DNA of 62,984 nt, filler included, from Reclinomonas americana ATCC 50394 (taxonomy: Eukaryota): NCBI GenBank assembly GCA_048213135.1. It is 3 parts of one record of this genome, joined end to end, with 100 filler letters (N's around TTAATTAATTAA, not from the genome) between each part and the next. Parts side by side here need not be neighbours in the genome. Positions count along the whole stretch, not along the records: positions 1 to 26,924 come from PS015031.1; positions 27,025 to 49,996 come from PS015031.1; positions 50,097 to 62,984 come from PS015031.1. One strand, given 5' to 3'. Shown here piece by piece: positions 230-60,749 of this stretch (positions are counted from its first letter, which is position 1; the number at the start of each line of letters is the position of its first letter). The notes under the pieces are model-generated. The model had not been told where the DNA came from and made no database searches. It was given only the letters and a program-made list of their open reading frames with translations. The position numbers and the translations under genes were made by a program.

Positions 230-3200
230 CAATGGCGAATGCCGACACCGCCAGATATGCGTTGGCTGGCGCCCATCGTGTGCACAACTCGTATGCGCCA
301 ACAGCTGCACCCGCCGCTCCAATCGTCAACGTGATGCTAGTCGCACTGCCGAATGCGCTGCTGATGCTGGCGCTGGCCACGGCCGTCGGCGGTGTTGTCG
401 CGCCACAAAGGGGAGTGCCTAGCACATACGCCGACGCATCGGCCGAGTTGTTCACCAGCGCGGTTCCTGTCAGTGTTATCAACTGACCAGCCAGTGCCGA
501 CACGAATGTGGCCGATAGCGATGTCACAGTGGGTGCTGCATTGAGGCAAAGGCAATCAGCATCATCGCGTAACACAACAACAACACATTATCGAAATAGC
601 ACGCAACCTGCAATGTTCAGCGTCTGATCAAACGACATGGCAGGATTACCATTGTCGGTCGTGCGCACAATCACCACCAGCGACGCCGTCACACCGGCAT
701 TCACAAACTGCAGCTGGTTGCCAGACACAATCGTCACCAACGCGCTGCTGGCACCACCGACCACCGAATACGTGAACGATTGCTGTGAGTCCATATCACT
801 CGTGCTCATCGTGCCAATCGCCAGTCCCGCCGTGCTGGGTGGAATGTACGAGCCTGCACTCAGCGTCACCGCCGTTGGTGCATTGTTCACTGCGGGAAGA
901 CAAGGTCAGCATCCACACCAAGAAAATCACACTCCCAATCAACCATCCACTCACCCGAGGTCACACTGAATGTCTTGTCGACAAACATGGGGGGCGTGCC
1001 GTTGTCAAACGAGCGAACCGAGACAGCCAGTGGGCTGCCCGATTGTCCCGCCGACGTGATCTGCAACTGCGCGCCGCTCAGGGAGAACACGTTGCTGTTC
1101 GCTCCTCCAGTGATGACGTACGTGTACGACTGGCTCCCATCACTGTACGTCGTGCTCATCGTGCACACGGACATATTGGCCGTCGACGGTGCGACATAGG
1201 TGGCAGAGCACGCAATGTCGGTGGGCACCGCGTTGGAGGTGGTGAAGGACAGGGTAGAGCCGGTGAGAGTGCTGGGTACAGTGGAGGTGGCGCTGGCACG
1301 GAAGTAGTACGTCCAGTTGACGGCGAGTGATGTGAGTGACGCAGTAAGGGCGGTGCTGGAGGCGACGCCGGAGGTGGTAGGGGTGGCCGCGATGATGGTG
1401 GAGCCGATCGCGAGTCGGCGGATAGTGTTGTTGGTGTAATCTACGTGAAGAAATGATAAGGAGGGAGAAGCACAGAGATGGAGTAGTCTACAGCACAAGG
1501 GCTCACCAGAAATGTACAGAATTGATGACGTGGCATCATACGCCACGTATATCTGCGCTCGCCAATGAGACAACAAATTTTCAGCTGTCTCTTCATCGCA
1601 AACGTGACAGGACGAACCGGCGAATTGAACAGAGCAGCTGTGAGTGGGCTCCCGTCCGCTGTTCCAGTAACTCCTGCGGTACCGGCAATGGTAGTCACGG
1701 CGCCAGTGCTGATGACGACTTGGCGAATCGTTTGATTACCATACTTTGAGGATCACGAGTGATGAGATACCGCAAACAGCAACGAATTTAGGGCAGCACG
1801 CAACATCTGCAACGTAAAGAACGCCCCGGCCGCGATCAAGCTGGATACCAACGGGTATGAAGAAACGAGCCGCAGTGCCTATGGCATCTGCTGTCCCTGA
1901 AGTCCCGGCAACAGAGCCGGCCAGAGTTGACGCAGTCATCGCCAGCATGTCGATCACTCGAATAGTGTAGCGGTCACGATCAGCTGCTCGCCACCATACT
2001 TTGAGTGCCATTCCTTGCACAAAAAACTCAATCTCTCTCTCTCACACACACGCACTCACCGACATACAGCCGATTAGCAGATGTGTCCAACGCCACACCA
2101 GCAGGTCCACCAAATCTTGCTGTTGTTGCACACGCTCCGTCAACGGTGCTCGACGACCCAATCGTACCGCAGTAGGTGGTGACCTCGCCGCCGAATGTGA
2201 CCTGGGAGACGGGATGTGACCATGGCGCGCACCATCAGAGCAGTCGCAGATGCCTGCACGAACCTTCCTCACAGCCCTGTTCAACCAGTCGCCAACGTAC
2301 ATCACCTTGTTCGACGAATCAACCACAACACCGTGCGGTTGGTAAAACCTCGCATTCAATCCGGTGCCATCCACCGTGCCCAACGATCCGTTGCCAGCCA
2401 GAGTCGACAAAGTCCCGGAAGGAGTACTCACCCGAACGGCGTGGTTCATTTGCTGGCAAGTACGGAAATGAGCGACAGACGCTCGCGCTCTCTTATCACT
2501 ATGCAACCAACGCAACATCAGTAATGTACAAGTACCCCGTCGTTGGGTCGATGAACACATGGGCGGGTGAGTTTAGCCGTGCAGCAGTGCCGACTCCGTC
2601 AACCAAGGCCGCTGCTCCAGCAGTTCCCAGAAACGTCGACGTCACACCTGCACTCGTCACCCGTCGAATAGTGCTATTCCACTGGTCACACACGAACGCA
2701 GTGCCCGACGCGTCAATTGCCATGCCCTGCGATCCGCGTAAGCGAGACTGGACGTGCAGTCCGTTCGTGATGCATGCGAAGAGTGAATCACCGTCGGTCT
2801 GTAAAAACGAGCGGCACTGCCGGTGCCGTTCGTCGAGCCAGACATACCCCCGGTGCCCAACCACGTCGACACCGTTGGCGTCACACCGAATGCAGCCGAT
2901 GTTGGCGCCCACTCGAACGAGTTGCTCATTGTCGAGGCCGCCACAGAGTTGCCCACCACCGCATTCAATGTCGCCGACGAACTGGCCACACTGCTGGCCG
3001 CCAGTGTGGCCAGCGACTGGGTGGCTGTGGCATATCAACAAGAAAGGAGGCACCGTGAATAATCAGCACGAGAGGAGGGTGAAGGAAGAGAGAGAGACTG
3101 ACCTGTGGTGATGGTAAACGCCTTGTCGAAAAATAGCGGCGGCGTTCCATTGTCTGTTGACCGAATAGTCACCGCCAGCGAGCTGCCTGCCTGCCCTGCG

Positions 3201-58053: not shown

Positions 58054-60749
58054 AATGGCTGACGCAGTATCGCACGGAGCACAATACTACCGCACTCGCG
58101 CTTGACGCCGTCGCTGCTCGTGTGCTTGTGTGGGCGGGCCGAGGAGGCAGTGTGCCCATTGCCGAGCTGGCCGCCGGAGCGCCAATGGCCAGCAAGAGTA
58201 TCGAGATGGCTCAGGGCAGTGCTGTCACGCTGACACTGCCCACTGTCGTGTCGGACCCGACGCTGCTCGACTTTCGCCTGTTCGCTGGCGATCGCGGTGA
58301 TCCACTGGCCACATCGGCTGCCGCGACTGCGGTGCTTGATAACGCACGTGATGGGCGAATGGCTGCGCTCATCACTGTGAGCGGCGCCGGCAAGACCAAG
58401 TGCATGTTTGACGTGCTGCGCCGCCGCTACGGTGTGTTTCTGGATATGAACGGTGGGCGGATGGGCAAGCCAGACGGCGGCGTTCAGGTGGCGCTCGCGG
58501 CGATGGAGGAACTTGGCGGTAAGATTACCGACAGTGTGCAACGCCTAGAATATGCATGCATGGACGAGTTCGCGCTCCTTCTTTCGGCTCGTCTGGCCAC
58601 GATGCTAGTGCTGCACGGCGCCGGTCTGCTGAAGTCGCCCGAGCACTGGCTCCTGTTGCAGTTGCAGGGGAGTGTCACAAGCAACTTGCTCACTGTCGAG
58701 TTGGTCCGGGCACTGCGCTCGCTTGATGGACTTGTACCGTCAGCTCTATGCACGGGACTGTGCCAACTGACGCGTGCAACGTTGACTGCCAACGAGTATC
58801 CCATTGTGGCTGTCGATGAGGCTGGCGCCCTTCTTCGCGTGCTGAGGAATCGCTTCATGGACAAAAACGTTGTGTTTCCATTTTGGCACACCTTCTCGCT
58901 CCTGTCACTCGCTCACCACTGCCCCTCAACTCGCAGCACAATAGCAACCGCAGTGCGTTTAGCGTCGTGGCGCGCTACCTGCTCGGCCTCAACGACGCCG
59001 GCAGCGTTGTGGCTGGCACATCCCTGTCGCTGCGTGATGCCGCTCTGCTCGAATCGGCCACGGCGGGCAAACCGGAGCGCCTGCATCGACTCGGCCATCT
59101 GTTGCGCCCGTGGCTCACCGATGACATCAAGGCGGTGCTCCAGCGGTGCGGCATCGCCGACTGCACCGGTGCCGATGCCGCGTCGATGCAAGGTGAGCAA
59201 GGGATTGTGCGATTTTCTCTCATTGTTGTCTTTCTCCCCCTCTTACATTATCACAGGCCGCGCGCGCCTCATGATGCGCTACCTGCAACTCCGGTGGGAT
59301 GGCATGTCGTCTACGGGTGCAGTTCGGGAGGTCATCACGGAGGATGCCAAGACCGAGATGCTGGGCAGCCTGGCGCACCAGCTCGTGTCTGCGTCACGCT
59401 TGCCTGACTATACATTGCTGTTCGAGGTATTGCGTTCTTCTCGTCCCCACGTCCGCGGATGGCGTAGCGCTGTTCGTCTCATTTTTATCCCCTCGCATGC
59501 GCGCAGCTCGCTCGCGAACTCTATGTGGCCGAGTACTTTGCTTTTGGTGCCGTTCTCGACGAGAAGCCTATGCCATTCACCTTCATTGATGCCGTTGAGT
59601 GTGGTCTCTGCTTTGTGCTGTCACCCGAGGGTACCAGGCTGGTGTCGGTGGCCAACTCGTCGTCGGCTTATCGGCGCAGTCCGTGGAAAGGCAGAGTGTT
59701 ATACTCGTGCGAGGTGCGGCAGAATTCGTGGGCATTGTATCTGTCGTTTTCGACTTCTGATGCGCTTCTCTTTGCCTGACTACTCAGCCATTCGTGTTGG
59801 ACGTCGTCCGTAGTGAGCTGCGAGACGCTGCCGCCACGGTGGTGGCCAGTCTCCGGCATCCTATACAATCGCAAATTGGTTTCGAGCTAGAACGGTTTGT
59901 AGCCGTGTGTCTGTGTGAGGGTGACATGCACCCAGACACGAGTGGCATCACTGGCGCCCTCGCGCGCAGCTTCTTGCAGCCGTTGCGTGCCGTGTTTCAC
60001 ATTCGTATTTCTCTCTCGGAGCAGCAGAGTGATTCATTTGTCTTTCTTCCCACGCCTTTAGGTCTGCTGCCGATGCCACTTGCGACAACAAGGAGTCATC
60101 ATCGCCGACGAAGATGATGTACAGCATCCTGTCGAGTCCCATGTTGCAGCCGCGTCGGCCTGTAATCTGGGATTTGCGCGAGTCGGCACCGCTCGCCCGT
60201 GGAGTGGCGGTGGCGCATGCAGTGCTGGATGACGTGTGCGGTGTGGGCCGTGGCGATCGGGATGCCATTCCGCCGGCCACTGGCGCCACTCCCGTTGCCT
60301 TTGTACAGCGCTGCCTGGAATTGGCGCGAGCGCAGGAGAAGGATGGAGGTGAGACATCGGAGCGCGTATGGCAGCGCAAACCGTTTGCTGCTCTCCTCCC
60401 GATGCGACCGAGTGGCCCCGACATTGCCGCCTGTGTGCCGCTGGCCGCCGATCCCACCAAGTTTGTGCTGCTGCTCGTGGCCTTCAAGACCAAGGGCGGC
60501 GGTGAAGCAGTGAGCAAGGAGAAGGCTGTCGCAAACGTGCAGACCACGGATCCGCGACACAACGGCGTAGCAAAGCAACTCGTCCAGGCTTTGATGTCGG
60601 AGGGTGCACTTGCGGCGCTGGTGCGGGTGCATTTTGCGTTACCAGAGGCGAAGGTGGACGAGGAACAGGAGGTGGCCGTGGGGGAAAAGGTGGCTGTGGG
60701 CAAGAAGACGGCGGTGAGGCGGACGGAAAAAGGAGGGTCGGAGGAGTAA
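58054..60749 (+). CDS. Crinkler/RHS-type (CR) effector-like P-loop NTPase + restriction-endonuclease-fold protein; N-terminal exon(s) not resolved
   Basis: Walker A VSGAGKT, Walker B IVAVDEA, GTSLSL, GRAR, AVECGLC, E|PFVL, GFELERFVA and GPDI...LVAFKT. Five introns restore one frame. Confidence 0.7.

Follow-up and report, generated by a model that had tools for sequence, protein, structure and literature searches.

Shifted and bulged registers of base pairing between the U1 small nuclear RNA (snRNA) 5′ end and the 5′ splice site (donor) are experimentally established in human cells (PMC4856993). In the shifted register, as described in that source, the +1 G occupies the pairing place of the −1 G, the +2 U is mismatched, the +3 U replaces the +2 U, and later catalytic steps still cut at GU. 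The validated noncanonical registers combined account for 1.5% of 201,541 human donor sites, and registers with a bulge at +2/+3 or at +3 were predicted for 68 and 51 sites, respectively (Roca et al. 2012, via PMC4856993, table 3). Here we examine a window, that is, the whole stretch of 62,984 nucleotides (~63 kb) taken from the genome of Reclinomonas americana ATCC 50394, in which a first-pass annotation had listed 31 donors that begin with GTT followed by the usual consensus moved by one base; donors of this form are referred to below as shifted. A way of reading intron starts that humans use only rarely appears to be a routine one here: the shifted register is known from rare human sites and would here serve about a third of introns. 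Noncanonical U1 registers are known from human sites tested singly, whereas here dozens of such donors seem to stand within 63 kb, presumably thousands genome-wide.

The donors of the window resemble the human shifted-register sites (Roca and Krainer 2009, as summarized in Tan et al. 2016, PMC4856993) in having an extra base after GU, a cut at GU, and no need of a −1 G, and their U1 pairs would likewise be moved by one. They differ in frequency, since the human sites are rare and the form makes up 24 of 70 introns here, and in their tail, which reads G-C-G-T where the human tail is A-rich. With the human sites that carry a bulge at +2/+3 or +3, they share one surplus nucleotide between GU and the equivalent of the +5 G, but in the human bulge registers, as that source presents them, the −1 G stays in its normal alignment with U1, whereas it is missing from the donors of the window (present in 2/24).

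Like U12-type introns, the shifted introns form a second, far more rigid donor consensus beside a loose major one. They are nevertheless not U12-type, as the first-pass annotation had recognized, since the donor motif RTATCCTT and the branch motif TCCTTRAY are each found in 0/24 of them, and their branch motif, acceptor, and length are as in ordinary introns. In GC-AG introns, too, a minority donor stands in a consensus that is normal otherwise, but the shifted class has a true GT, and a GC-AG reading of it breaks conserved spacing. Entamoeba introns have GUUUGU as their single donor consensus, in the normal register and with T at +3 as a regular feature; this donor is comparable to the GTTTGT and GTTCGT donors found here, which keep the −1 G, and not to the class that is one base longer. 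The open-access literature searched yielded the human work and a tunicate study, but no description of such a class as abundant in any organism; text matches to the donor sequence in it were primers and unrelated passages.

Shifted donors and their junctions

All 31 listed donor coordinates carry GTT on the strand given for them. The heptamer is GTTGCGT at 19 of these sites, GTTGAGT at three, and GTTTCGT at another three, the remaining donors being single instances of GTTGCGC, GTTGCGA, GTTGAGG, GTTACGT, GTTAAGT, and GTTGTGT. Just two of the 31 donors (607 and 31250) follow an exon that ends in G, as had been claimed; at the others, the final exon base is T (13), A (10), or C (6).

GTTGCGT occurs 25 times in the window, against 11.58±3.28 expected from 100 dinucleotide-preserving shuffles, of which 0/100 reach 25. 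These copies lie mostly on the minus strand (21 minus, 4 plus), where most genes are, whereas the GTNGCGT heptamers with A, C, or G at the third base have 1, 7, and 14 copies, split 0/1, 3/4, and 6/8 between the strands, without strand bias. Claimed or curated donors hold 19/25 copies of GTTGCGT, compared with 11/140 copies of GTGAGT. Outside modelled donors, GTTGCGT is found at 6224-6230, 43622-43628, and 56713-56719 (minus) and at 43765-43771 (plus), in poorly modelled stretches that comprise the PAN region of NHL copy A, the region upstream of CTU1, and the sequence directly after the Macro domain; these copies may be further donors of the shifted class.

Introns were modelled with a Viterbi gene finder, self-trained on the window over several rounds. 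When run without any donor signal beyond GT (the flat-donor run), it placed introns at 14/31 of the claimed sites; this run was noisy, with over-called introns and GAG acceptors, and was used only as an unbiased recovery check, not for counts. An unsupervised three-component mixture fitted to the predicted donors gave two sharp classes, nnG/GTGAGTG and nnn/GTTGCGT (the slash marks the start of the intron). Errors of the later rounds were corrected by hand from repeat spacing, namely, the donor at 4849, which was read through, and those at 8341 and 48487 (the latter in round 4), which were given wrong acceptors. The curated set comprises 70 introns, consisting of 52 of the 91 gene-finder introns (both flanks ≥4, length 45 to 130 nt) together with the hand-pinned junctions; the other 39 gene-finder introns, mostly from low-scoring or gap-ridden regions, were left out. 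The sites of shifted form are as follows.

536-607, minus: shifted intron, GTTGCGT with −1 G; paralogue of 7147 (GTGTGTG); curated
1744-1804, minus: shifted intron, GTTGCGT, AAG acceptor; NHL unit spacing
2453-2516, minus: shifted intron, GTTGCGT; NHL unit spacing; paralogue of 8738
3770-3844, minus: shifted intron, GTTGAGT; NHL unit spacing; also in the flat-donor run
4787-4849, minus: shifted intron, GTTTCGT, phase 2; NHL unit spacing; read through by the finder, frame stays open
8282-8341, minus: shifted intron, GTTTCGT, AAG acceptor; NHL unit spacing; internal paralogue of 1804
8675-8738, minus: shifted intron, GTTGCGC (tail ends in C); NHL copy B paralogue of 2516; next exon continues the NHL unit
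9994-10070, minus: shifted intron, GTTGAGT; recent paralogue of 3844
15699-15767, minus: shifted intron, GTTGCGT; finder, coding flanks 20/7; frame-compatible alternatives absent within 45 nt
16431-16437, minus: shifted donor, GTTGCGT; finder rounds 3 and 4; acceptor uncertain (79 or 97 nt); proline-rich low-complexity exon
20721-20801, minus: shifted intron, GTTGCGT, phase 2; Gly-Gly-x / h-x-h-x-x-G repeat spacing kept, large repeat protein
21092-21162, minus: shifted intron, GTTGCGT; finder, flanks 27/43
23523-23594, minus: shifted intron, GTTGAGT; finder, flanks 37/39
23822-23898, minus: shifted intron, GTTGCGT, phase 2; repeat spacing kept; also in the flat-donor run
24129-24209, minus: shifted intron, GTTGCGT; finder, flanks 409/26
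30891-30962, minus: shifted intron, METTL21-like gene, GTTGCGA; ungapped against 11 homologues across the P-Y-D junction
31180-31250, minus: shifted intron, METTL21-like gene, GTTACGT, phase 1, −1 G; ungapped through the SAM-binding motif; GTGAGC five bases on breaks the frame
31276-31330, minus: shifted intron, METTL21-like gene, GTTAAGT; ungapped through the G-x-G-x-G motif region
31421-31480, minus: shifted intron, METTL21-like gene, GTTGCGT; ungapped through the V-W-D motif region
41375-41433, plus: shifted intron, CTU1 (in the contig most likely inverted), GTTGCGT, phase 2; tblastn, spliced length equal to homologues
46848-46916, plus: shifted intron, GTTGCGT; finder, flanks 42/10
48427-48487, minus: shifted intron, ion channel, GTTGCGT; homologues on both sides favor the 61-nt form
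58869-58936, plus: shifted intron, GTTGTGT; finder, flanks 51/25
55511-55517, minus: shifted-type donor, additional to the first-pass list, GTTGTGT; finder, acceptor uncertain; in the zf-RVT-like open reading frame
22962-22968, minus: candidate donor, additional to the first-pass list, GTTGCGT; finder rounds 3 and 4, acceptor uncertain; outside the curated set
18834-18895, minus: claimed donor, weak, GTTGAGG; flat-donor run only; plausible first intron after ATG
27067-27073, minus: claimed donor, weak, GTTGCGT; rounds 1 to 3, 204-nt intron across N gaps; round 4 model ends there
28914-28920, minus: claimed donor, GTTGCGT; outside gene models; CAG 60 nt downstream
34778-34784, minus: claimed donor, GTTGCGT; outside gene models; upstream of the kinase exon
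36732-36802, minus: claimed intron, GT61-family gene, weak, GTTTCGT; finder, one weak flank 5/−1
37304-37310, minus: claimed donor, GTTGCGT; sequence as first annotated (intron would be ~358 nt); outside gene models
52259-52327, minus: claimed intron, weak, GTTGCGT; rounds 1 to 3 only, low coding scores
59982-60061, plus: claimed intron, weak, GTTGCGT; finder, flanks 1/30

Fifteen of the 31 claimed junctions are pinned by homologues or by repeat spacing, and eight more (15767, 16437, 21162, 23594, 24209, 46848, 48487, and 58869) come from the gene-finder set, where the exons on either side of each score as coding. A further five (18895, 27073, 36802, 52327, and 59982) have a weak flank or appear in some rounds only, and three (28920, 34784, and 37310) lie outside every gene model. 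The spliced model of the METTL21-like lysine methyltransferase aligns without gaps to 11 of 16 distant homologues through junctions 31480, 31330, 31250, and 30962, all of which lie in conserved motifs; a per-exon search of solved structures gave no usable match for this protein. In the NHL-repeat genes, seven shifted junctions restore the exact D-x-x-N-x-x-[IV]-R spacing of nine uninterrupted units, and the junction at 607 occupies the same position as its internal paralogue at 7147, which has an ordinary donor. Junctions 20801 and 23898 keep the repeat spacing of a large repeat protein. The CTU1 junction at 41375 gives a residue number equal to that of the homologues (tblastn; seven homologues searched, high-scoring segment pairs of four examined), which were taken from the best 120 of 2,577 matches, the closest among the matches listed being 69% identical. 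For the ion channel, four distant proteins (best identity 37 to 41%) support the flanks of 48487, with the exact junction in a variable linker. The GT61-family exon, which bears on 36802 and 37310, had no homologue at E≤1e-8 in the "longer" search range.

The shifted form makes up 24/70 curated introns, spread over at least 10 unrelated genes, which bears out its description as a major intron class. Four of the six introns of the METTL21 gene are of this form, as first annotated. For NHL copy A, a count of about 5 of 19 had been given; shifted donors are indeed present there, six being found, but the denominator is instead ~28 modelled introns.

In-frame stops or lengths not divisible by three occur in 17/24 shifted introns, much like the 38/45 among ordinary introns, which speaks for genuine introns at these places. 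It is very improbable that the junctions are misplaced, with GTT being exonic and followed by a GC-AG intron from GCGT, or with another nearby GT being used, or with no intron at all. A frame-compatible GC does lie three bases in at every GTTGCGT site, a GC-AG intron exists in this window (CTU1 donor 42074), and 7/24 shifted introns lack in-frame stops and are of a length that keeps the frame. A listing of frame-compatible alternative donor and acceptor pairs is undiscriminating, as any in-frame upstream GT or GC qualifies. The GC reading, however, brings in one more residue, which upsets the D-x-x-N spacing of the NHL units as well as the repeat spacing of the large protein, and it inserts into motifs that are ungapped in the METTL21-like homologues. 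It is also impossible at the GTTGAGT, GTTAAGT, GTTACGT, GTTTCGT, and GTTGTGT donors, which obey the same −1 rule, and the GT five bases into shifted donors breaks the frame. Judged by frame, homology, and repeat spacing, the shifted sites are real GT-AG introns.

The −1 G and the anatomy of the two classes

The shifted class was defined by GTT, G at +6, and no GT at +5/+6. By this definition the curated set holds 24 shifted, 45 ordinary, and one GC-AG intron, and all 24 shifted introns run from GT to AG in frame. A −1 G is present at 2/24 shifted donors and at 43/45 ordinary donors (Fisher p=1.2e-13), in agreement with the association first noticed. The difference persists when paralogues are collapsed (2/21 versus 35/36, p=6e-12) and when only homology- or repeat-pinned junctions are counted (2/15 versus 10/12, p=4e-4). 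Because the donor mixture scored the −1 base, with a possible bias of the ordinary class, the finder was rerun with a donor model blind to exon bases, which gave a −1 G at 1/15 shifted and 30/32 ordinary donors (p=5e-9). Finally, a −1 G precedes all nine GTT donors whose register is ordinary (GTTCGT, GTTTGT, and GTTGGT, with GT at +5/+6, and a doubtful GTTACA). The loss of the −1 G is therefore linked to the register rather than to the T at +3. The rule is a clean one, in which a donor has either a G as the last exon base or GTT with a rigid tail at the start of the intron.

The presence of a −1 G at 43/45 ordinary donors is itself stricter than expected for a eukaryote. The two exceptions are a paralogous pair (4549 and 10783, T/GTGAGTG) at an NHL position where other repeats have the shifted form. 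Several paralogous introns of the minus strand have different donors at the same position, namely, 607 (GTTGCGT) and 7147 (GTGTGTG), 2791 (GTGATT) and 9019 (GTTCGT), and 4963 (GTTTGT) and 11819 (GTGTGT). The donor form changes while the splice position stays.

It is scarcely credible that the extra T is an artefact of assembly or sequencing that spuriously follows GT. The extra base is intronic, so the reading frame cannot exclude it, and the scaffold has 23 gaps and one contig that is most likely inverted. However, independent paralogues share the T (1804/8341, 2516/8738, and 3844/10070), the T is tied to donors without a −1 G, and its removal would leave about 20 ordinary donors without a −1 G, against the 43/45 that have it.

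With paralogues collapsed, the shifted consensus has T3 by definition, G4 in 18/21, C5 in 16/21 (A in 3), G6 in 21/21, and T7 in 20/21, whereas the ordinary consensus has G3 in 25/36, A4 in 21/36 (C in 9), G5 in 31/36, and T6 in 20/36. The T of the tail is thus stricter in the shifted class (20/21 at +7 versus 20/36 at +6; p=0.002). The first-pass description of the tail as the usual consensus moved by one base holds for the G/T anchor, which stands at +6/+7, but not for the rest, as C5 is preferred where ordinary donors have A4 (p=3e-4) and the tail is far more rigid. Both classes fit the heptad G-[G/T]-T-N-N-G-T with the cut ahead of the first GT. A single donor, G/GTAACGT at 22128-22213 (minus), combines the G-T anchor at +6/+7 with A at +3 and a retained −1 G, and looks like a bulged site, the only possible example.

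Beyond the donor, the two classes are alike. Median intron length is 71 nt for shifted and 67 nt for ordinary introns, the GC fraction is 0.52 in both, and intron phase is similar. The pyrimidine fraction is 0.65 versus 0.66, CAG acceptors are found in 19/21 versus 30/34, and the CTSAY branch motif is found in 14/21 versus 25/34. The shifted introns are ordinary major-type GT-AG introns with one extra base between GT and the downstream G-T anchor.

An introner-like family of copied introns was considered as a source of the shifted class and ruled out, because the intron bodies share nothing beyond chance: mean local alignment scores are 13.3 between shifted introns, 13.0 between ordinary introns, and 12.9 between classes.

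Reading of the two donor forms

With moderate confidence, we favor the reading that a single heptad, read by U1 in a shifted register, explains both donor forms. The reader of the 5′ splice site, most likely the U1 snRNA 5′ end, would bind the heptad G-[G or T]-T-N-N-G-T, with the first G of the heptad pairing at the place that normally faces the last exon base and with cleavage ahead of the first GT inside the heptad. Where the second base is G, the first G would stay exonic and give the ordinary G/GTGAGT; where it is T, the first G would open the intron and give the shifted /GTTGCGT, and the exon would not need to end in G. The one base pair lost would be offset by the nearly invariant tail. 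T is the only base enriched as the extra base, in keeping with a +3 that pairs to the A usually found opposite +2. The flanks also move, as G is found at −1 in 2/21 shifted donors and at −2 in 4/36 ordinary donors, and both the shifted −2 and the ordinary −3 are A-rich and T-poor.

These flanks and the missing −1 G also separate the two halves of the first-pass proposal of a shifted or bulged register, of which the data favor the shifted half, since the flanks move with it, over the bulged half, since a bulge would keep the −1 G. In the bulged register, alignment with U1 would be the usual one at the +1 G and the +2 U, and the surplus U, at +3 or +2, would bulge out of the helix. In table 3 of PMC4856993, some human sites are validated or predicted to carry such bulges, at +2/+3 and at +3, and the tail is displaced by exactly one base, as a bulge would have it. 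However, a site so weakened should want the −1 G at least as much as ordinary donors (43/45), and the shifted class has it in 2/24; furthermore, no particular base would be called for at a bulged +3, whereas T alone is enriched there. A bulged register is thus distinctly improbable, and the shifted register is favored over it because the −1 G that the bulged alignment predicts is missing.

Several points weigh against the single-heptad reading. The predicted duplex with a standard U1 5′ end has a mean of −2.2 kcal/mol for shifted donors, compared with −7.4 kcal/mol for ordinary donors, and is weak in any register. C5 is found in 16/21 shifted donors where standard U1 would pair A, and standard U1 in the shifted register alone does not account for this consensus; either the UGCGU tail is read by some other component, or it is the U1 of the organism, or a second U1, that differs. 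The resemblance of shifted −1/−2 to ordinary −2/−3 comes from small numbers, all counts are from one window of 62,984 bases in which several genes are paralogous, and every junction is inferred from frame, homology, or repeats rather than from RNA junctions. Lastly, a −1 G would alter the encoded residue at 16/21 shifted donors, which is near the random coding expectation and so is compatible with a use of the form at exon ends that cannot be G, without testing that idea.

The mismatch at C5 could instead point to a dedicated reader: the organism might have an additional U1 snRNA, or its U1 might deviate at the 5′ end opposite +4/+5 and +2. Such a reader would be fully complementary to GUUGCGU, with its own unshifted register, so that two major-type classes would exist in parallel. 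This is a possible but doubtful alternative. It would explain C5 and the near-zero pairing with standard U1 together, and the rigid seven-base consensus of the shifted class beside the loose ordinary one is typical of full base pairing. Against it, the U1 5′ end is very conserved across eukaryotes, and branch site, acceptor, and length are the same in both classes. No such RNA was seen in the window, the only sequence searched, where Rfam at gathering thresholds and ARAGORN found no RNA family, no tRNA gene, and no snRNA gene. In addition, the −1 G rule and the resemblance of the flanks are accounted for by a single heptad, with no need of a second RNA. The wider proposal of two donor-recognition systems in the major spliceosome, with standard U1 for G/GTRAGT-like donors, a second U1-like RNA for GUUGCGU, and perhaps altered U6 docking, is unlikely; to our knowledge, an snRNA variant of such a kind has not been described as a general splicing factor in any eukaryote. 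If it were true, roughly one intron in three would require such a variant.

If the single-heptad reading holds, the shifted class raises the questions of how the choice of the cleavage site is made apart from the seat of U1, how much U1 pairing is needed, and how U6 copes with one extra base. The shifted form may serve introns that follow exon bases barred by coding from being G, which suggests an evolutionary use in lifting the G requirement from the last exon base. In practical terms, gene finders with a single donor matrix would misplace or miss about a third of the introns, as the first rounds did here.

Gene content of the window

The DNA of the window is eukaryotic nuclear, with a GC content of ~44 to 61% per 4-kb block and 23 N runs in the scaffold. 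Genes are densely packed, with many short introns each, and were named from a Pfam run on 107 exon translations, as follows.

227-8424 and 8727-10824 (paralogous span given to 12270), minus: two tandem NHL/TIG/PAN genes (Pfam)
19145-26704, minus: largest gene, its model cut by the gap at 26707, with one exon of 831 codons
30564-31664, minus: METTL21-like lysine methyltransferase (Pfam)
33677-34300: kinase exon (Pfam)
38077-40658, plus: three tandem SUMO-like genes, intronless, ~230 to 240 codons each, with a Rad60-SLD/ubiquitin domain at the end of each
47501-48936: ion channel (Pfam)
GT61-family gene, CTU1, Macro-domain gene, and galactosyltransferase-family gene: named by Pfam on exon translations

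The product of the largest gene is a repeat protein rich in Thr, Gly, Ala, and Ser. It is without a Pfam match, and a scan of metagenome contigs with its 831-amino-acid exon revealed no relative; the nearest protein-atlas clusters are unnamed and eukaryotic, with the phylum mostly Chlorophyta (score 0.91), which is a weak lead. An open reading frame at 54616-55631 (minus) has a weak match to zf-RVT, the reverse transcriptase zinc-binding region (E=0.003), and is possibly the remnant of a retroelement. NHL copy A contains an internal duplication, in which ~7.2 to 8.4 kb resembles 0.6 to 1.8 kb with conserved intron positions.

CTU1 is broken in the assembly. Its exons 1 to 4 run on the minus strand from 43408 to 41793, whereas the remainder is plus-strand sequence of the contig 41113-41771. 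This contig is flanked on either side by a 20-N gap (entry spans 41093-41791 and 41793-43408) and was most likely placed in the wrong orientation. This gene also holds the sole GC donor among the 70 curated introns, in a homologue-pinned GC-AG intron at 41829-42074 (minus) that begins G/GCGAGT. Introns 1 to 3 of CTU1 are long, with 336, 695, and 246 nt, compared with a median of ~70 nt in the window.

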